This document shows, in pieces, positions 34,821-42,398 of a stretch of 64,000 bases of DNA. Below the pieces are notes generated by a model that saw only the letters and a program-made list of their open reading frames with translations, did no database searches and was not told the DNA's origin. Both the position numbers and the translations under genes were made by a program. Within the stretch, counting starts at the first letter, position 1; every line of letters starts with the position of its first letter. This DNA comes from an archaeon (GTDB lineage Archaea > Nanobdellota > Nanobdellia > Pacearchaeales > GW2011-AR1): the NCBI GenBank assembly GCA_018694115.1, contig JABHNB010000007.1:1700-65699 (forward strand), read 5' to 3'.

Positions 34821-35750
34821 CTACAATTCCATCTTATCCAAATCTTCCGGAATACTAACTTCAATTCCACCTTTTCCAGATCCGCCGATTGCCTTCTTAA
34901 CCTCTCCAAGAATAACCTTTGGAATAGCCTCATATCTCTGACTCAAATGCATCAAAGCCAATTTCTTAACTTTAGCCTTCTTAGCAATAGCAGCAGAGTC
35001 CACAGAAGTCAAGTGTGCGTGCTCAAAAGCAATTTCTTTTTCTTCCTTGGAATAAGTAGTCTCACAAATTAATAGTTCGGCATTCTTGGAAATCTTTATA
35101 GCATTTGGAGTCATTCTAGTATCCATCACAAAAGAAATTTTCCTAGAGGGTTCAACATACCGTAGCTTCTTCCCGTCAATCTTTTTATCCCCAATCTTAA
35201 CAGTTTTACCCTTGGTCAATTCTCCAATCAAGGGAGAATTAGGCAACTTCAATTTCGCAAGCTTCTTCTTGTCAATTCTATTTTGTTCCTTAACCACAAA
35301 AGAATATGCATTCGCAGGAGAATCGTGATCCATCGAAAGAGCTTCAACAAAGAATTCTTTCTCATCTATAAAAACGCCTTCTCTCACTTCATGAACTTCT
35401 AAACTCAATTTCTCGCCCTTATGTGCAAACAAATCAAGATAAAGTCTCATCTTTCGTCTTGTTCCTGAAGGCCCATAAATCTTAAGGGTTTTATTATATC
35501 CATTAAGCATCATCGTCTGCAAAAGCCCAGGCAATCCCAGTACATGATCTCCATGCCAATGACTAATCAATATCCTAGTAATCTTACAAGGGTTAAGCTT
35601 CGCTTTCCGAAACTGCCTCTGAGTTCCTTCCCCACAATCCATCAGAATATTTTCATTCTTATACTTCAAAAGCACAGCTGGATGATTCCTCCGAGAAGTC
35701 GGAACAGCACTTCCAGTACCCAAAAAAGTTACGTCAATCTTTTCTGCCAT
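34821..35750 (-). CDS. rnz: Ribonuclease Z
   Basis: FLGTGSAVP, DCGEGTQRQ, SHWHGDH, CETTY, HLSQRY. Confidence 0.96.
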   Translation of the reverse strand: MAEKIDVTFLGTGSAVPTSRRNHPAVLLKYKNENILMDCGEGTQRQFRKAKLNPCKITRILISHWHGDHVLGLPGLLQTMMLNGYNKTLKIYGPSGTRRKMRLYLDLFAHKGEKLSLEVHEVREGVFIDEKEFFVEALSMDHDSPANAYSFVVKEQNRIDKKKLAKLKLPNSPLIGELTKGKTVKIGDKKIDGKKLRYVEPSRKISFVMDTRMTPNAIKISKNAELLICETTYSKEEKEIAFEHAHLTSVDSAAIAKKAKVKKLALMHLSQRYEAIPKVILGEVKKAIGGSGKGGIEVSIPEDLDKMEL

Positions 35751-36465: not shown

Positions 36466-36987
36466 TTATAAGCCTCCAAGTAAATTTTCTAAAGCTTTTT
36501 GTTTCTCCCTAAGCTGCTTAGGAGTAAGTTTAGGTTTATTCTTTTCACGAATACACCCCAAGATATAACCCACCTGATTTCGTGTTAATAGGGGAGTTCT
36601 AAGAACTAGATTAACATCTTTTTGAGTTTTTGTTTTAAGAACCTTTACGGCCATCTGCATCATCTGCCATCTTTGTATTGGAGTGCCGGGCATCCCCGGA
36701 AAAGTACGATAACATCCAAAATTTCCGCAGACACTTTCTTTGTGATCTTGGATCTCACAATGTGCTTTTCCCTCATCAACACTTAAATTTTCACACAAGG
36801 TATACTGTCTATCCTTATTCACTTCAGGAATTATGAATTTGTAGCAACAAACGCCACACTGACCACATTCTTCTGTCGCCCACACTGAGCGGCCAAGCCT
36901 AGATAATTGATCTTGTATTTGAACTAGCCTCTCCTCACGAGCAGTTTCAGGAAAGCTTTTGATTTCTTTAGGCAGAGGTCCTTCCAT
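36466..36987 (-). CDS. YkgJ-like Cys-cluster (CxxCxxCC) protein
   Basis: ECGQCGVCC..LCENL..HCEI..VCGNFGC. Confidence 0.6.
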   Translation of the reverse strand: MEGPLPKEIKSFPETAREERLVQIQDQLSRLGRSVWATEECGQCGVCCYKFIIPEVNKDRQYTLCENLSVDEGKAHCEIQDHKESVCGNFGCYRTFPGMPGTPIQRWQMMQMAVKVLKTKTQKDVNLVLRTPLLTRNQVGYILGCIREKNKPKLTPKQLREKQKALENLLGGL

Positions 36988-37209: not shown

Positions 37210-38880
37210 ATGTTCATTGTAAAGAAAGAAATTAAAGGTAGAGACTACTATTATCTTAGGCAAAGCATCCGGGAGGGAGGGAAAGTCAAGGCCAAAACAA
37301 TTGCCTACCTCGGAAAAACTAGGAAAGAAGCCGAGAAAAAGAAAAAGGAGATTATAGCCAATCTAAATCAAGACAATAAAATTAATAAACCCAAAGAGAA
37401 ACCAGTTATTATGGAAGAGAAAAAAGAAATGAAACCGCTAACAATCGATGAGATGGCAAACTTTTGTAAGAGAAAGGGATTCATTTACCCTTCTGCAGAA
37501 CTATACGGCGGGCTTGCAGGATTCTGGGACTATGGACCAATCGGATCCGAATTAAAAAACAATCTTAAAACACAATGGTGGAAGCATCACGTGCATTGCC
37601 GGGAAGATGTTGTCGGAATCGACGGTTCAATAATCACAAACCCAAAAGTTTGGGAAGCTTCAGGACACGTAGAAAACTTCACAGACATCGCAGTAGTTTG
37701 TAAAAAATGTAAAAATAAATTCAAGGTAGACGAGCAAGAACTAGCAACGGCAAAATGTGATAAGTGTGGAAGCGACGTAGAATCAAAAGGAAAGTTCGTC
37801 CCAATGTTCACAACCCAAGTCGGACCAATCGAAGAAGACTCAACACTAGCTTACTTAAGACCCGAAACAGCCCAACTAATTTTCACAAACTTCAAACTAG
37901 TCCAAGATAACGCTCGATTGAAACTCCCATTCGGAATCGCTCAAATTGGAAAAGCATTCAGAAACGAAATAGCCCCACGAAATTTCATCTTCAGAGTAAG
38001 GGAACTAGAACAAATGGAAATTGAATATTTCATTGATCCAGAAAAGAAAGAAGAATGCCCGTATGAAATCGAAGACATTGAGATAAAACTCTTTTCAGAA
38101 GAGATGCAAGAGAAAAACGAAGAACCAGTTCCAATGAAAATCAAGACCGCATTAAAAGAAAAAATAATCCAATTACCTTGGCACGCATACTGGCTTTCCT
38201 CAAGTCTAAACTGGTTCAAGTCCCTCGGAGCAAACATGGAAAACTTCAGAATCAGACAACATACCAAAGATGAAAAATCGCATTACTCAACGGACACATG
38301 GGATCTAGAATATAATTTTCCATTCGGATGGAAGGAACTACAAGGTATCGCAGACAGGGGAACATACGATCTTTCCGCACATCAAGAGAAATCAAAAAAA
38401 TCTATGGAAATAATGGACGACGCATCAGGCAGAAAAATCCTACCAATGGTAGTAGCCGAGCCATCATTCGGAGTAGAAAGAGCATTCCTTGTTTTCATGA
38501 ACGAAGCTTACACCGTCGGAGAAAAAGACAATGTAATCTTAAAACTTAATCCAAAACTAGCCCCAATAAAAGTTGCAATCTTCCCCCTTGTAAAGAAAGA
38601 TGAGGCCCTTGTAAAAATCTCAAAAGAAATATACAAAAATCTTAGAGAAGAATGGAACGTCCTCTATGATGACTCTGGATCCGTAGGAAGAAGATACGCG
38701 CGAAACGATGAAATCGGAACACCGTTTTGCATAACTGTAGACAGCGACAGCATAAAACAAAAAGACGTAACAATCAGAAATCGAGATGACGGAAAACAAG
38801 TTCGAATCAAAATCCCAGAGCTAAAAGATACTTTAAGAAAATTAATTTCTGGAGAGATTGAATTTGAAGATTTAAAGTAA
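37210..38880 (+). CDS. glyS: Glycyl-tRNA synthetase (alpha2 type) with an extra N-terminal domain
   Basis: YGGLAGFWDYGPIG, YLRPETAQ, GKAFRNEI, EPSFGVER, C-terminal anticodon-binding domain. Confidence 0.96.
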   Translation: MFIVKKEIKGRDYYYLRQSIREGGKVKAKTIAYLGKTRKEAEKKKKEIIANLNQDNKINKPKEKPVIMEEKKEMKPLTIDEMANFCKRKGFIYPSAELYGGLAGFWDYGPIGSELKNNLKTQWWKHHVHCREDVVGIDGSIITNPKVWEASGHVENFTDIAVVCKKCKNKFKVDEQELATAKCDKCGSDVESKGKFVPMFTTQVGPIEEDSTLAYLRPETAQLIFTNFKLVQDNARLKLPFGIAQIGKAFRNEIAPRNFIFRVRELEQMEIEYFIDPEKKEECPYEIEDIEIKLFSEEMQEKNEEPVPMKIKTALKEKIIQLPWHAYWLSSSLNWFKSLGANMENFRIRQHTKDEKSHYSTDTWDLEYNFPFGWKELQGIADRGTYDLSAHQEKSKKSMEIMDDASGRKILPMVVAEPSFGVERAFLVFMNEAYTVGEKDNVILKLNPKLAPIKVAIFPLVKKDEALVKISKEIYKNLREEWNVLYDDSGSVGRRYARNDEIGTPFCITVDSDSIKQKDVTIRNRDDGKQVRIKIPELKDTLRKLISGEIEFEDLK

Positions 38881-38883
38881 ATC

Positions 38884-39108
38884 ATGGAAGTAAAACTCGG
38901 AAGATATGAACATTTTAAGGGAAAGCAATATGAAGTTATCGGGGTAGCTAGACATAGCGAGACCTTGCAAGAATTAGTTATCTACAAATCACTTTATGAT
39001 TCTGAAGAATTCGGTAACAATGCCATTTGGGCAAGACCAAAAGACAGTTTTCTAGAAACAGTTAACGTCGATGGAAAAGAAATTCCACGTTTCATGTTTA
39101 TCGGATAA
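38884..39108 (+). CDS. DUF1653 domain protein
   Basis: GRYEHFKGKQYEVIGVARHSETLQELVIYKSLY..WARP. Confidence 0.85.
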   Translation: MEVKLGRYEHFKGKQYEVIGVARHSETLQELVIYKSLYDSEEFGNNAIWARPKDSFLETVNVDGKEIPRFMFIG

Positions 39109-39157
39109 AAAAGTTTCAGAATCCCATTCCCAAACACATATTCTTTCACCAGCTATA

Positions 39158-40192
39158 TTAACAACTCACCCCAACAAGACTTCCATGTTTAGAATAATGA
39201 AATAATCTGCCACCAATACTCGCACGTTCCCTAGTACTAAGATTATCTCCCCCATTAACTATTTCGGCAACCAGCCCTGCATAAAATTTAGCAGCACCTT
39301 GTTTAGATTCAATAAATCTTGCAGCCCTTCTCTGACTATCGGCTAGTTCGCCTTCAGGAACTTCTCTTAAAACTTCATCTGCAAGACCTTCTCCATTCAC
39401 CATTTTTAGTAATCCGCTATTTTGTAGTCCTCGATAAGCAACACCATTATTAGTGAAGCTCTTTCCAGATACAATTCTCTTGCCATAGAACGCAGGTTCA
39501 AGGGGGTTTTGTCCCCACCCTTGAAGAAGAGTATCTCCCATTACTGCAACATCGCAGATAGAGTATAACCTATCTAAAACACCCATTTCGGTTACAAGGG
39601 TGTAATTAAGATCTTTTCCAGAAGGGGCCCCATTCATAGCATAATTAACTCCCAAGTTATCCAATTTAACTTTATCCGTAGGATTTCTTAAAACAGTCAT
39701 AATTTTTATATCTGGATTCTGCCGGATTACCTTATTTGCTTGAGCAACAAAATCTTCCATCTCCACCCCGTGTATGGACCCTCCCAAGACAACCTTCCGA
39801 TCACCGAGGAAGTATTTATCTCGAAGTTTAGCGATCTCTTCAGCATCTAGTAGTCTTCGTGGTTCGAATTTTAAGGGATCTATATGGAACCCAATATTCC
39901 CCCTCTTCCCAAAAACAACAGAATTAGGAGCACACACGAAAGAAACGCTAGCATCGGCATTTCCTCCATCGGGACAGTCAATAAGTACTCCCGAATCAGC
40001 CAATTCCTCAAAAGCTAGATCTTCCCTCAAGGTTCGACTCGTATTTGTCTCCCTATCAAGATTGACATAATCATTTGTTTCAATATCAATTATAGCCTCC
40101 GGTAGGGCTGTTCTCAGCTCTCGAATAAATGGTGGAAGTTGCTTAATTGCCCCCAAATAATCTGCCATAACCTGAATTCTTTTCTTAGCCAT
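39158..40192 (-). CDS. WaaA/KdtA-like GT-B glycosyltransferase, paralog 3
   Basis: VLGGSIH, TEMGVLDRLYSICDVAVMGDT..GWGQNPLEPAFYGK. Start MAKKR at 40192. Confidence 0.75.
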   Translation of the reverse strand: MAKKRIQVMADYLGAIKQLPPFIRELRTALPEAIIDIETNDYVNLDRETNTSRTLREDLAFEELADSGVLIDCPDGGNADASVSFVCAPNSVVFGKRGNIGFHIDPLKFEPRRLLDAEEIAKLRDKYFLGDRKVVLGGSIHGVEMEDFVAQANKVIRQNPDIKIMTVLRNPTDKVKLDNLGVNYAMNGAPSGKDLNYTLVTEMGVLDRLYSICDVAVMGDTLLQGWGQNPLEPAFYGKRIVSGKSFTNNGVAYRGLQNSGLLKMVNGEGLADEVLREVPEGELADSQRRAARFIESKQGAAKFYAGLVAEIVNGGDNLSTRERASIGGRLFHYSKHGSLVGVSC

Positions 40193-40193
40193 A

Positions 40194-41216
40194 TTAACAA
40201 CTCCCCCCCGCAGGACCATTAGTAGCATAATCCCTAACTCTTGCTTCTAGTTCCCGACATTTTTCACGAGTAAGATTATCTCCCCGTTCAACAACTTCTG
40301 CAACCACTTCCGCATAGAACTTTGCAGCACCCTGCCTAGATCCTATAAACTCTGCAGCCTTTTTCCTTTGAGCATCTAATTTTCTATCAGAGACATTTCT
40401 CCCAGCCTCTCTTGCAATTTTCTTCCACCGAACTCTCTTAAGTAACCCGCTATTTTTCAAGCCATCATAAGCCGCCATATTATTTTTATTATAATGTCCC
40501 GAAATAATTCTCTTACCATAGACTGCAGGTTCTAGAGGGTTTTGTCCGCCACTTCCAGTAAAGAATGTATCTCCAAGCACTGCAACGTCACAAAGAGAAT
40601 ATAGCCCATCTAAGATTCCCATTTCAGTTATCAGAGTGTAATTAGTATCTCTTCCGGCAGGGTCTGCATTCATAGAATAATTAACTCCACAACCATTCAT
40701 CGTAGACCTGGCAGAATCTGGATTCCTAGGAACAACTATAACTTTTGTGTTCTTATTCTTCGCTATAGCCTTTTTTGACTGGCCCATAAACTCGTCCATC
40801 TCATATGTACGAATAGAGCCTCCCAAGATAACCTTTTGATCACCAATAAAATATTTAGCTTTTAATTTGGCGATCTCATCAGCATCGAGTAATTTCCTAG
40901 ATTCAAATTTTAAAGGATCTATTGGAAGATTCATCGTCCCCCATAGTGAAGTATCCTCAGCCCTACAAACAAAACGAATTTTAGGTTCATCCCTCTGCGG
41001 AACTTGATTAATAGAAATCCCAGAATCCCTTATCCCTTCTCGAGCCAAATCTGCCATTAATGTTCCGCCCGTAGTGTTATCCGCAAAAATATAATCCTTA
41101 GTTTCAATATCAATCGTAACCTTTGGTAAGGCGGTTCTCAGTTCCCTAACTAGGAAAGGAAGTTGCTTTACAGCCCCCAAAAATTCCGCATTAATGTGTA
41201 TTCTCTTCTTTTCCAT
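40194..41216 (-). CDS. WaaA/KdtA-like GT-B glycosyltransferase, paralog 2
   Basis: VIVVPR, TEMGILDGLYSLCDVAVLGDT..GGQNPLEPAVYGK. Start MEKKR at 41216. Confidence 0.75.
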   Translation of the reverse strand: MEKKRIHINAEFLGAVKQLPFLVRELRTALPKVTIDIETKDYIFADNTTGGTLMADLAREGIRDSGISINQVPQRDEPKIRFVCRAEDTSLWGTMNLPIDPLKFESRKLLDADEIAKLKAKYFIGDQKVILGGSIRTYEMDEFMGQSKKAIAKNKNTKVIVVPRNPDSARSTMNGCGVNYSMNADPAGRDTNYTLITEMGILDGLYSLCDVAVLGDTFFTGSGGQNPLEPAVYGKRIISGHYNKNNMAAYDGLKNSGLLKRVRWKKIAREAGRNVSDRKLDAQRKKAAEFIGSRQGAAKFYAEVVAEVVERGDNLTREKCRELEARVRDYATNGPAGGSC

Positions 41217-41217
41217 T

Positions 41218-42246
41218 TTAATATCCCCACTCCCCAAAATTTCCAGAGTCATAAGCTGCAATTTTAGAGACAAGTTCTGAATGCCGTTCAGTAGGATATT
41301 CTCCCCGAACAACTCCTGCAACCAATCCCGCATAAGCTTTTGCAGCGCCTTGTTTGGATTTGATAAACTCTGCAGCTTTCTTTTGGCTAGTGGCTAATCC
41401 TTCCGGTGAATCATCCATTAAAACCGCGTATGCAATATTTTCCACTTCGACACTCTGAAGTAAACCGCTCTCTTCCAAACCCTCATAGGCAGTCCGGTTA
41501 AGCCGACTATTAGGTCCAGTGACAATCCTCTTCCCATAGAGTGCGGGTTCTAGGGGATTTTGTCCCCACCCATTCCAAGAGAAGGTATCTCCCATGACTG
41601 CGACGTCACAAGCAGAATATAATCTATCCAAAACTCCAACCTCAGTGATAAGGGTGTAATTAGTATCTCTTCCGGCAGAGCTTCTATCAAAAGCACATCC
41701 CACTCCTAGATCTTTTAAGGTTTCTATAGCATCATTAGGACATCTTGGGACAATCATGATTTTAGTATTCCTGTCCTGAGAGAGTATCCTTTCTGATTGA
41801 GCAACAAAATCTTTCAGTTCATCATCTTGGATAGATCCTCCTAAAACAACCTTTTTTGAACCGAGAAAATATTCATCCCGTATCTTAGCAATTTCCCCCC
41901 CAGTTAGTAATCTTCTAGGTTCGAATTTTAAAGGATCTATGAAAAAATGGAACCCGGTCGCAGGGGAATAACCTGCCATACCCGGATGGTATTCAAATGA
42001 AACATGCGCATCAGGCTTCTTATTCTTGCGACCATTAATATGTATCCTTGAGGCTCTAATTCCTTCAAGGGCCAGGTCATTTCTTAGTGTTCTGGCAGTA
42101 TGCTTACTAGCTATTGTGTGATCTCCAGTTTCAATGTCAATTATAGCCTCCGGCAGAACCGCTTTCAGTTCTCGAATAAATGGGGGAAGTTGCTTTACAG
42201 CACCCAAATATTCTGCTTTTATTCGCACTATTCCCTTCTTTTCCAT
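41218..42246 (-). CDS. WaaA/KdtA-like GT-B glycosyltransferase, paralog 1
   Basis: MIVPRCP, TEVGVLDRLYSACDVAVMGDT..GWGQNPLEPALYGK. Start MEKKG at 42246. Confidence 0.75.
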   Translation of the reverse strand: MEKKGIVRIKAEYLGAVKQLPPFIRELKAVLPEAIIDIETGDHTIASKHTARTLRNDLALEGIRASRIHINGRKNKKPDAHVSFEYHPGMAGYSPATGFHFFIDPLKFEPRRLLTGGEIAKIRDEYFLGSKKVVLGGSIQDDELKDFVAQSERILSQDRNTKIMIVPRCPNDAIETLKDLGVGCAFDRSSAGRDTNYTLITEVGVLDRLYSACDVAVMGDTFSWNGWGQNPLEPALYGKRIVTGPNSRLNRTAYEGLEESGLLQSVEVENIAYAVLMDDSPEGLATSQKKAAEFIKSKQGAAKAYAGLVAGVVRGEYPTERHSELVSKIAAYDSGNFGEWGY

Positions 42247-42398
42247 GCTGAACAAAGGGGAAAATCCTATTTAAACCTTTCTATTTGTCGTAACTGGAGA
42301 GTAGTTATTAAATAGAGAAAACCCCAAAAACGCCCCCCACACCCACCAACAATTTTATATACCATTCTAACTTAATGTTATCAATTGAGGGTGATAAA

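Follow-up and report, generated by a model that had tools for sequence, protein, structure and literature searches.

Three adjacent genes in the genome of a Pacearchaeota-type archaeon encode proteins that, on the evidence of sequence profiles and a predicted structure, are reduced GT-B relatives of GT30/WaaA and descend from the Kdo-transferase lineage. GT30 is otherwise known for WaaA, which transfers Kdo to lipid A. The reading that we favour, with a probability of about 0.5, is that the three proteins (A, B and C) would be soluble, nucleotide-dependent (CMP-type) transferases in which a WaaA-type donor domain is paired with an acceptor domain that is new and diversifying. The family to which they belong is small, previously undescribed and confined to DPANN archaea. 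The genes were studied in a 64,000-nucleotide stretch of DNA, here called the window. Its archaeal origin agrees with the 0.9 Mb size of the source genome, with the identity of a same-genus genome (G014, a Candidatus Pacearchaeota MAG) and with the fact that every named family member is from Nano-, Woese- or Pacearchaeota.

Three tandem paralogs resemble WaaA

A first-pass annotation of the window had described three head-to-tail paralogs of about 340 aa with 1-bp spacers, and this arrangement was confirmed as minus-strand ORFs at 39158-42246:

41218..42246, minus strand: paralog A, 342 aa, the first gene of the operon
40194..41216, minus strand: paralog B, 340 aa
39158..40192, minus strand: paralog C, 344 aa, with motifs as in A and B

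The spacers are the single bases 41217 and 40193, and the proteins share 48-53% pairwise identity. The motifs of paralog A are YLGA (13-16), KQLP (18-21), DPLKFE (104-109), GGSIQDDE (136-143), VPR (166-168), EVGVLDRLYS (202-211) and GQNPLEPALYGK (228-239). The WaaA C-terminal signature that had been noticed was found in A, B and C as LD.LYS..DVAV.GDT...GQNPLEPA.YGK. All three proteins are hydrophilic (GRAVY -0.2 to -0.5) with no hydrophobic N-terminus, in agreement with the reported absence of a membrane anchor, and profile-profile alignment placed their AEYLGA, AEFLGA or ADYLGA element onto the HAxSVGE of WaaA, as had been proposed.

The C-terminal half is homologous to the WaaA donor domain

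Comparison of the family with 39 bacterial WaaA proteins by hhalign gave a probability of 100% (E 3.4e-40, 321 aligned columns), and a sequence match to the WaaA structure 2xci was obtained at E 3e-6. The NCBIfam WaaA models matched A, B and C at E 1e-14 to 3e-19, in the C-terminal half only. A Pfam search of the three proteins returned no family at E <= 1, which includes Glycos_transf_N (PF04413), Glyphos_transf and other GT families. The suggested HMM comparison with GT30/Glycos_transf_N thus gave a divided answer, in which the C-terminal WaaA matches stood and the expected PF04413 match did not appear. Searches with the PADLOC (anti-phage defence) and PHROGs (phage) models gave no significant match, and our literature searches did not find a description of an archaeal WaaA-like family.

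The AF2 model of paralog B (pLDDT 92, pTM 0.90) has a GT-B fold with a five-stranded N-domain of ~100 aa. Its top Foldseek matches were WaaA (2xci, E 5e-12) and the WaaA C-domain (4bfc, E 1.4e-8, TMt 0.75), with generic GT-B enzymes ranking below the WaaA structures; the best structural match was therefore WaaA and not an unrelated GT-B family. A fold search of BFVD returned generic GT-B matches only. Together these comparisons uphold the assignment of the donor domain to GT30: the genes are real homologues of the C-terminal half of WaaA, and the C-terminal Rossmann domain, as predicted from alignment and model, is a complete WaaA-type nucleotide-binding domain.

The predicted donor site is conserved while donor supply is missing in most carriers

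In Aquifex aeolicus WaaA, CMP is contacted by P211-R212, F247/G248/L250, N273 and E276 (PMC6286764). The equivalents of these residues, and those of K162 and E187, were (near-)invariant across 26 family members. Specifically, K103, E139, P163-R164, G200/L202 and N226/E229 of paralog B correspond to K162, E187, P211-R212, G248/L250 and N273/E276 of WaaA. The donor-binding residues are retained in A, B and C rather than lost in all copies, and the only exception noted among the CMP contacts is in paralog C, where VLR replaces VPR and a leucine thus occupies the Pro211 position next to the retained arginine. WaaA reads the cytosine via backbone atoms (PMC6286764), so that base specificity is not deducible from sequence.

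The first-pass annotation had proposed a CMP-ulosonic acid as the donor. Donor supply was examined in the source genome and six other carriers, four of which are 94-100% complete. KdsA (PF00793) and NeuB (PF03102) were absent from all seven, and a KdsB/NeuA-type cytidylyltransferase (CTP_transf_3) was present in one of them, as compared to 114 of the 401 genomes in the phylum. The sole carrier of such an enzyme is the source genome, which has a divergent, PseF-like form on contig 7 (matching the whole of TIGR03584 at E 5.5e-14) that adjoins a Wzx-like gene in a glycan island. A TagD-like cytidylyltransferase ORF, recognized by motif only and not by HMM, lies in the same island. None of the family gene neighbourhoods contains a donor-synthesis gene. 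Since KdsA and NeuB are missing throughout and the cytidylyltransferase is restricted to one carrier, the CMP-ulosonic-acid donor is unsupported, and the six carriers that lack CTP_transf_3 as well are without an obvious CMP-sugar.

The same absences argue for a different nucleotide-activated donor (a UDP- or GDP-sugar, or a CDP-alcohol), in which case the proteins would be generic small GT-B transferases merely descended from GT30. If the donor were a CDP-alcohol, CMP would be released and a phospho-alcohol transferred, by analogy with the TagF-type polymerases of teichoic acid. This reading is favoured further by the backbone mode of base recognition in WaaA (PMC6286764), by the TagD-like ORF on contig 7 and by the GT28-like, GT4 and LPG_synthase_TM-type genes that lie near the family at three loci (L025, L040 and L043), but such glycolipid-type neighbours occur in two lineages only. 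Moreover, the GGxNPLEP, PR and G.L motifs match the single-phosphate CMP site of WaaA nearly letter by letter, and no Pfam match to Glyphos_transf or another GT family was obtained. We therefore consider a different type of donor unlikely.

The triad arose by local triplication at a variable insertion spot

The expansion by duplication that had been suggested could be specified as an in-situ tandem triplication, in an island of 3.5 kb that separates glyS from parA. The other features of this region are:

37210..38880, plus strand: glycine-tRNA ligase gene (glyS), single copy, vertically inherited
38884..39108, plus strand: DUF1653 gene, 74 aa, convergent with the triad
39140..39157, minus strand: 5' vestige of a fourth unit of the repeat family
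42247..42374, minus strand: intergenic region between A and parA, common to the divergent parA gene

At the nucleotide level the units repeat in register every 1018-1039 nt, and A, B and C form one clade (support 100/100). Past the stop codon of C, the vestige reads 'TAA t ATA GCT GGT GAA AGA AT' and resembles the B/C junction, 'TAA t ATG GCT AAG AAA AGA AT'. The repeat analysis of the triad gave no sign of recent gene conversion between the paralogs, whose best-matching repeat blocks share 63-84% identity, and it revealed no inverted repeats. The paralogs are most divergent in segment 40-98 of the N-domain.

A TATA-like TTTAAATA at 42275-42268, 21 nt upstream of the ATG of A, suggests a leaderless A-B-C transcript. 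Further operon signals are the 1-bp spacers and G-rich ribosome-binding stretches located within the stop-proximal codons of the preceding gene.

Close relatives lack the 3.5-kb segment, including its DUF1653 gene, at the glyS-parA junction. Within the genus this junction is a variable insertion spot: G005 and G010 have nothing inserted there, whereas G021 encodes an unrelated HExxH protein at the site. We rejected the idea that glyS and the family were transferred together: the closest same-genus genome has a GlyRS 85% identical to that of the window on the same backbone while lacking the family. The GC content of the triad, 41.2% as compared to 38.0% genome-wide, falls among the highest 6% of 3-kb windows and is weak evidence for a foreign origin.

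Family genes are found next to aminoacyl-tRNA synthetase genes

The family comprises about 35-40 clusters at 50% identity, all from Woese-/Pacearchaeota-type DPANN archaea, and occurs in 5 of the 401 genomes of the phylum. A scan of JGI metagenomes added three further true family loci, the remaining matches being bacterial WaaA. The two groups are separated by a sharp gap in scores, with family members matching over their full length at E <= 1e-26 and bacterial WaaA matching in the C-domain only at E >= 1e-15.

A lipid or S-layer glycan context, as first envisaged, was not borne out; the gene neighbourhoods point to aminoacyl-tRNA synthetase genes instead. GlyRS adjoins family genes in the window and at L005, L009, L010/L011, L014, L035 and L044, ThrRS does so at L170, and at L173 the order is ThrRS-family-GlyRS with gaps of 35-37 bp. 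HisRS (L025, L040) and MetRS (L032) also adjoin family genes, and AsnRS lies 1 kb away at L027. At L043 there is an apparent GatE-PHP-Nudix-family operon, in which the GatE, PHP and Nudix genes overlap successively by 4 bp and the family gene follows after a gap of 23 bp, and at L037 an AMP-forming ligase lies upstream. The adjacency to glyS persists though position and orientation vary between old subfamilies. A rough estimate for synthetase adjacency gave p about 0.01, assuming three independent adjacencies in about ten contexts versus about 5% for a random gene. Other neighbours are enolase, PpsA, GGDEF and TrmB genes. Two small ORFs near the triad were rejected as conserved partners: a 173-aa CxxCxxCC ORF (36466-36987) has no homology to the ORFs of 172-178 aa that flank the family at other loci, and the DUF1653 gene shows no relationship to the small Cys-rich ORFs that occur close to glyS in other neighbourhoods.

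By analogy, these neighbourhoods could mean that the family works with the aminoacyl-tRNA machinery, either by modifying one of its components (a synthetase, tRNA or translation factor) or by using the NMP-activated intermediate of a neighbouring synthetase, with different subfamilies matched to different synthetases. The recurrence of GlyRS, ThrRS, HisRS and MetRS, the proximity of AsnRS and GatE, the persistence of the glyS link and the rough p value speak for this. However, many of the GlyRS and ThrRS cases are common to one syntenic block and are therefore not independent, the other contexts have enolase, PpsA, GGDEF or TrmB as neighbours, and the glyS-parA junction is an insertion spot of variable content. 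In addition, the N-domain alone has no significant structural similarity to tRNA-binding domains, and we know of no chemistry that connects a CMP-type GT-B site with aminoacyl-tRNA. We thus regard a role in the aminoacyl-tRNA machinery as improbable. In a more specific form of this idea, an enzyme derived from WaaA, with NMP as its leaving group, would be functionally coupled to aminoacyl-tRNA synthesis, with subfamilies matched to GlyRS/ThrRS, HisRS, MetRS, AsnRS and GatE and with A, B and C as diversified partners of the glycine system; this we hold to be slightly less probable still.

The N-domain is remodelled and diversifying

The N-domain of the family has ~100 aa, compared to about 165-200 aa in WaaA. 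Glu31 of WaaA is essential by mutagenesis (PMC6286764). In the hhalign alignment the family has an alanine at this position, and its N-domain contains no counterpart of Asp77, the Glu98 region or the NGR elements; catalysis, if any, can therefore not follow the WaaA scheme. The family has invariant N-domain motifs of its own, G-A-x-K-Q-x-P and D-P-L-K-F-E-x-R. Residues 40-98 are hypervariable, with 30-34% identity between the paralogs as opposed to 54-79% in the flanks, and the N-domain pI is 9.7 in A, 5.8 in B and 4.6 in C. When the N-domain (AF2 pLDDT 83) was searched by itself, no fold matched significantly (best E 0.013); the weak similarities were to the Rossmann halves of GT-B enzymes, and WaaA ranked 11th. 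A class-IIa anticodon-binding-like domain was considered for this region and dropped, given the lack of significant structural similarity to tRNA-binding domains.

This remodelling makes a new acceptor plausible. That part of the earlier proposal stands, while the lipid or S-layer glycan clusters that were to provide the acceptor are not indicated by the neighbourhoods. The acceptor would not be lipid A, and a membrane lipid is probably excluded too.

The loss of the essential N-domain residues of WaaA, together with the missing donor pathway in most carriers, would also fit non-catalytic nucleotide-binding proteins (pseudo-glycosyltransferases) that act as sensors or scaffolds and use the CMP pocket for a ligand only. 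This seems rather improbable, as the polar residues K17, Q18, D100, K103, E105 and R107 are invariant and face the expected position of the cleft, the equivalents of Lys162 and Glu187 are kept even though these matter for catalysis and not for CMP binding, and every motif is preserved in all paralogs despite about 50% divergence. Finally, that the proteins are true Kdo transferases (WaaA orthologues) which make a Kdo-containing glycolipid from CMP-Kdo has in its favour that WaaA proteins are the only named homologues, but is already contradicted by NCBIfam scores of 53-69 bits, far under all WaaA equivalog cut-offs (363 and above), by the lack of a PF04413 N-domain, Glu31, Glu98 and an anchor, by the absence of KdsA from seven genomes and by the absence, to our knowledge, of lipid A from archaea.

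Proposed activity and significance

If A, B and C are soluble CMP-type transferases, the C-domain of each protein would bind a nucleoside-monophosphate-linked (CMP-type) donor. The variable N-domain would hold an acceptor in the interdomain cleft, and this acceptor would receive the activated group as CMP leaves. Lys103, Asp100 or Glu105 of the DPLKFE motif may take over the catalytic or phosphate-handling role of Lys162, Glu31 and Glu98 of WaaA. As the N-domains differ in sequence and charge, the three paralogs might act on three different acceptors or in three consecutive steps. Among the gene products of the source genome, only the PseF/KdsB-like cytidylyltransferase of the contig-7 glycan island is a candidate for supplying a CMP-linked donor; in the other carriers the donor would have to be something else.

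The family would represent a compact archaeal offshoot of GT30 that kept the nucleotide pocket almost letter for letter, discarded the acceptor domain and the catalytic residues, and is found in genomes unable to make Kdo or nonulosonic acids. If active, it would provide a new donor/acceptor pair for this fold as well as a minimal GT-B scaffold. Should the synthetase link be functional, glycosyltransferase-like enzymes would be tied to translation in genome-reduced symbionts in an unexplored way, and coupling to aminoacyl-tRNA synthesis in particular would join a glycosyltransferase fold to the archaeal translation apparatus in a new manner. At the least, these 'hypothetical proteins' of Woese-/Pacearchaeota gain a predicted fold, a predicted ligand site and a family boundary.

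Comparison with known systems

EarP (GT104) is a GT-B arginine rhamnosyltransferase of EF-P that uses dTDP-rhamnose as donor. As a small soluble GT-B enzyme that modifies the translation apparatus, and one that is among the Foldseek matches, it invites comparison, but it has no specific sequence or structural kinship to the family beyond the fold, and the analogy derives from gene neighbourhood only.

KdoT, an ELM1-like inverting GT-B Kdo transferase of Acinetobacter baumannii, is likewise soluble or peripheral with about 35 kDa, uses a CMP-linked donor, and has neither transmembrane helices nor an obvious classical catalytic base (PMC12856342), in which it can be likened to the family. It differs in belonging to an unrelated sequence family, annotated as 'ELM1-like mitochondrial fission protein', whereas A, B and C match no Pfam family, and in acting on Kdo2-lipid IVA in Gram-negative bacteria (PMC12856342).

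The closest known system is WaaA/KdtA itself (GT30; Aquifex aeolicus 2xci/2xcu and the Acinetobacter baumannii C-domain 4bfc). Unlike WaaA, the family has a shorter N-domain without a Glycos_transf_N match or a membrane-association region, an extra C-terminal helical tail, and archaeal hosts that lack KdsA and mostly also KdsB-type enzymes. What the two have in common is the GT-B fold with a homologous C-domain, the P-R, G.L and N...E (in GGxNPLEP) elements, the LKF(D/E) lysine at the domain junction, and an alignable first beta-alpha-beta unit of the N-domain that includes the glycine of SVGE.

The triad and its insertion site

Re-derivation from the window gave the same coordinates, sizes, spacers and motifs as the first-pass annotation had for three head-to-tail WaaA-like genes, here A, B and C.

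Features of the glyS-parA region
41218-42246, minus strand: paralog A, ORF of 342 aa
40194-41216, minus strand: paralog B, ORF of 340 aa
39158-40192, minus strand: paralog C, ORF of 344 aa
39140-39157: relic of a fourth unit, directly after the stop codon of C
38884-39108, plus strand: DUF1653 gene, 74 aa (PF07866, E 1.4e-26)
38881-42374: glyS-parA junction
34821-35750: metallo-beta-lactamase-fold protein, tRNase Z-like

One base separates each stop codon from the next ATG (A/B and B/C), and the three proteins share 48-53% identity. A TATA-like element (TTTAAATA) lies 21 nt ahead of the ATG of A, and B and C each have G-rich Shine-Dalgarno-like stretches within the final codons of the preceding gene (A and B, respectively). 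We infer from the sequence that A-B-C form a single operon, the transcript of which would probably be a leaderless mRNA.

At the DNA level, the triad consists of in-register repeat blocks with a period of 1018-1039 nt and 63-84% identity. A, B and C form one clade in the family tree (100/100 support), in which B branches first, and the fourth-unit relic retains, in degenerate form, an inter-gene junction and the five opening codons (ATA GCT GGT GAA AGA), with the start ATG changed to ATA. Unequal crossing-over in place thus built up the array, and triplication in place in the source genome is firmly supported. Tandem or paired family copies were also observed at loci L010/L011, L012/L090, L038 and L005, the last with copies on both sides of glyS.

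The same backbone as in the window (surface protein, MoxR, DUF58, vWA, ParA, GlyRS and metallo-beta-lactamase-fold protein) is present in two genomes of the same genus, G005, whose GlyRS is 85% identical to that of the window, and G010. In both, only ∼40-50 bp lie between glyS and parA (L029 and L031), and in G021 this junction (L030) holds a 291-aa HExxH-motif protein unrelated to the triad. In the window, the junction spans 3.5 kb and comprises the triad and the DUF1653 gene, which begins 3 nt past the glyS stop codon and is part of the segment missing in close relatives. Since the junction is near-empty or otherwise filled in relatives, it is a variable site and the triad is accessory. The triad has a slightly elevated GC content (41.2% versus 38.0%; top 6% of 3-kb windows). 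The GlyRS itself carries a ∼70-aa N-terminal extension (37210-37430) that occurs only in some genomes of the genus (G005, G018, G021, G010 and G038) and does not track the presence of WaaA-like genes.

A rare DPANN family derived from GT30

A Pfam search with A, B and C gave no match. NCBIfam WaaA equivalog models matched only residues ∼120-305, with just the C-terminal half of each model aligned (E 1e-14 to 3e-19); the scores were 53-69 bits, whereas the cut-offs start at 363 bits. The only solved relatives found by sequence were Aquifex aeolicus WaaA (2xci, E 3e-6) and the Acinetobacter baumannii WaaA C-domain (4bfc). A word-indexed search returned 25 full-length relatives (316-382 aa, E 1e-27 to 1e-97), none with Pfam domains and the few named ones from Nanoarchaeota or Pacearchaeota, with bacterial WaaA carrying PF04413 appearing only from E 2.6e-10. 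Likewise, in an exhaustive search of 1.84 billion representatives ∼35-40 clusters matched over their full length (E <= 1e-26), and below the same gap came ordinary ∼420-aa WaaA proteins, matched through their C-domains only. Compared as profiles, the family and 39 bacterial WaaA proteins aligned over 321 columns (probability 100%, E 3.4e-40).

With the family alignment as input, AF2 modelled B at pLDDT 92 and pTM 0.90. The best PDB matches of this model were the three 2xci chains (E 5e-12 to 6.5e-11) followed by 4bfc (E 1.4e-8, TMt 0.75), and generic GT-B enzymes matched only after these, from E 3e-7. The nearest structures are therefore WaaA and not the unrelated GT-B family that the first-pass annotation had named as evidence against its proposal.

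The source genome (0.9 Mb, 83% complete) holds A, B and C as its only copies. The family is present in only 2 of 61 relatives, and its carriers within the genus (37 genomes) are the source genome and G014, a Candidatus Pacearchaeota MAG whose copy contains an in-frame TAG. Across the phylum only 5 of 401 sampled genomes are carriers; GTDB species genomes yielded 13 loci, all in Woese-, Pace- or Nanoarchaeota MAGs, and a JGI metagenome scan only three. It is firmly supported that this is a separate and rare GT-B family, derived from GT30 and restricted to DPANN archaea.

The nucleotide pocket and the donor

In A. aeolicus WaaA, CMP is held by the backbone of Pro211 and Gly248, with Phe247 and Leu250 forming a hydrophobic pocket, Arg212 and Asn273 contacting the phosphate and Glu276 the ribose; alanine mutants confirmed the importance of Gly30, Glu31, Glu98, Lys162 and Arg212 (PMC6286764). 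Native WaaA numbering was transferred to the tagged 2xci chain (offset 21) and from there to the family alignment.

WaaA residues and their equivalents in paralog B
Lys162: K103, within invariant DPLKFE
Glu187: E139
Pro211-Arg212: P163-R164
Phe247 / Gly248 / Leu250: M199 / G200 / L202
Asn273 / Glu276: N226 / E229, within invariant GQNPLEP

These equivalents occur in A, B and C, the sole exception being a Leu at Pro211 in C, so that the loss of donor-binding residues in all three copies, also named beforehand as counter-evidence, was not observed. That the WaaA-type nucleotide site is intact in the family is firmly supported.

The donor proposed in the first-pass annotation, a CMP-ulosonic acid, fared less well. 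KdsA-type (PF00793) and NeuB-type (PF03102) synthases were found neither in the source genome nor in the six other carriers searched (G014, G115, G197, G204, G356 and G456; completeness 94-100% in four of them). A CTP_transf_3 cytidylyltransferase is encoded by 114 of the 401 phylum genomes, among the seven carriers only by the source genome, and by no other sampled genome of the genus. This 298-aa enzyme has PseF as its best model (E 5.5e-14, full-length alignment, far below the cut-off). It is encoded in a surface-glycan island on contig 7 (∼55-77 kb; L004 spans 61-64 kb), next to a 2-hydroxyacid dehydrogenase and a Wzx-like gene. In this island the PseF-like enzyme and the dehydrogenase were checked with HMMs; the Wzx-like flippase, a TagD-like cytidylyltransferase, a radical SAM enzyme, an epimerase, several glycosyltransferases, a DegT-like aminotransferase and an AglB-like protein were assigned by eye. 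With both synthases missing in the seven carriers and the cytidylyltransferase confined to one of them, CMP-Kdo or CMP-nonulosonate is not supported as the general donor. Transfer of Kdo or another ulosonic acid is not supported, nor are lipid A-like acceptors.

The conserved pocket would most simply be explained by a CMP-linked donor of another kind. The nucleotide may nevertheless have changed, since in WaaA the base is recognised by backbone atoms. No hydrophobic anchor was found in A, B or C. Most likely, all three are soluble and catalyse group transfer with a CMP-type leaving group, and the paralogs most likely differ in acceptor.

Genomic neighbourhoods

Among the loci examined, aminoacyl-tRNA synthesis genes border family genes unexpectedly often.

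Aminoacyl-tRNA synthesis and related genes near family genes
GlyRS: window, L010/L011, L044; convergent with the family gene
GlyRS: L009, L014, L035; family gene downstream, same strand
GlyRS: L005; flanked on each side by family genes
ThrRS and GlyRS: L173; order ThrRS-family-GlyRS, 35-37-bp gaps
ThrRS: L170; convergent, 4-bp overlap
HisRS: L025 (G204), L040; upstream, ∼100 bp
MetRS: L032; upstream, 122 bp
MetRS: L006/L012; four to five genes away
AsnRS: L027 (G356); 1 kb away
GatE: L043; apparent operon GatE-PHP-Nudix-family, the first three genes overlapping by 4 bp and the family gene following after 23 bp
AMP-forming ligase: L037; upstream

Other contexts contain enolase, PEP synthase, a GGDEF cyclase or TrmB. 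The GlyRS and ThrRS cases lie largely in one syntenic block and were therefore counted as one event, leaving a synthetase as immediate neighbour in ∼3 of 10 independent contexts (p ∼0.01, a rough estimate made with no formal test and assuming ∼5% for a random gene in a ∼800-gene genome). We regard this linkage as real. Either a functional tie or the tolerance of insertions beside essential genes may account for it; in the family tree, old subfamilies vary in position and orientation around glyS.

Several other features of these loci were observed. The single family gene of G014, with its in-frame TAG, adjoins a GGDEF diguanylate cyclase (L024:10977-11777; TIGR00254, E 5e-53), a domain unusual in an archaeon. 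SLT lytic-transglycosylase domains in Pacearchaeota-type loci (L009:2831-3451, L014:3904-4485 and L171:1-5148), one within a 2346-aa protein, tentatively suggest that bacterial cell walls are a point of interaction. An LPG_synthase_TM-like membrane protein, a GT28-like Glyco_trans_1_3 protein and an unannotated ∼372-380-aa protein recur in the flanks of L025, L040 and L043 (two lineages), joined by a GT4 in L025 only. The Pacearchaeota-type block (L005, L009 and L011) also has, between thrS and glyS, conserved Cys-rich ORFs of 75-82 aa (YYC..C...PYC..C), which are duplicated in some cases and gave no Pfam match.

Comparison with WaaA

The modelled N-domain of B packs five strands and two long helices into ∼100 residues (AF2). 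Folded alone (pLDDT 83), it matched no known structure significantly (best E 0.013). Residues 40-98 are only 30-34% identical among A, B and C, compared with 54-79% in the flanks, and the pI of the N-domain is 9.7 in A, 5.8 in B and 4.6 in C. That this domain is minimal and fast-evolving is firmly supported. Only its first beta-alpha-beta unit aligns with WaaA, where the family motif yLGAvKQlP falls on SVGEv and thereby places an Ala at the invariant Glu31. Asp77, Glu98 (ETE) and the NGR elements of WaaA have no family counterpart. K17, Q18, P20, D100, K103, E105, R107 and Y122 are N-domain invariants of the family's own. By N-domain, catalytic residues and pathway context, A, B and C do not qualify as WaaA proteins and are best classed as a variant within GT30.
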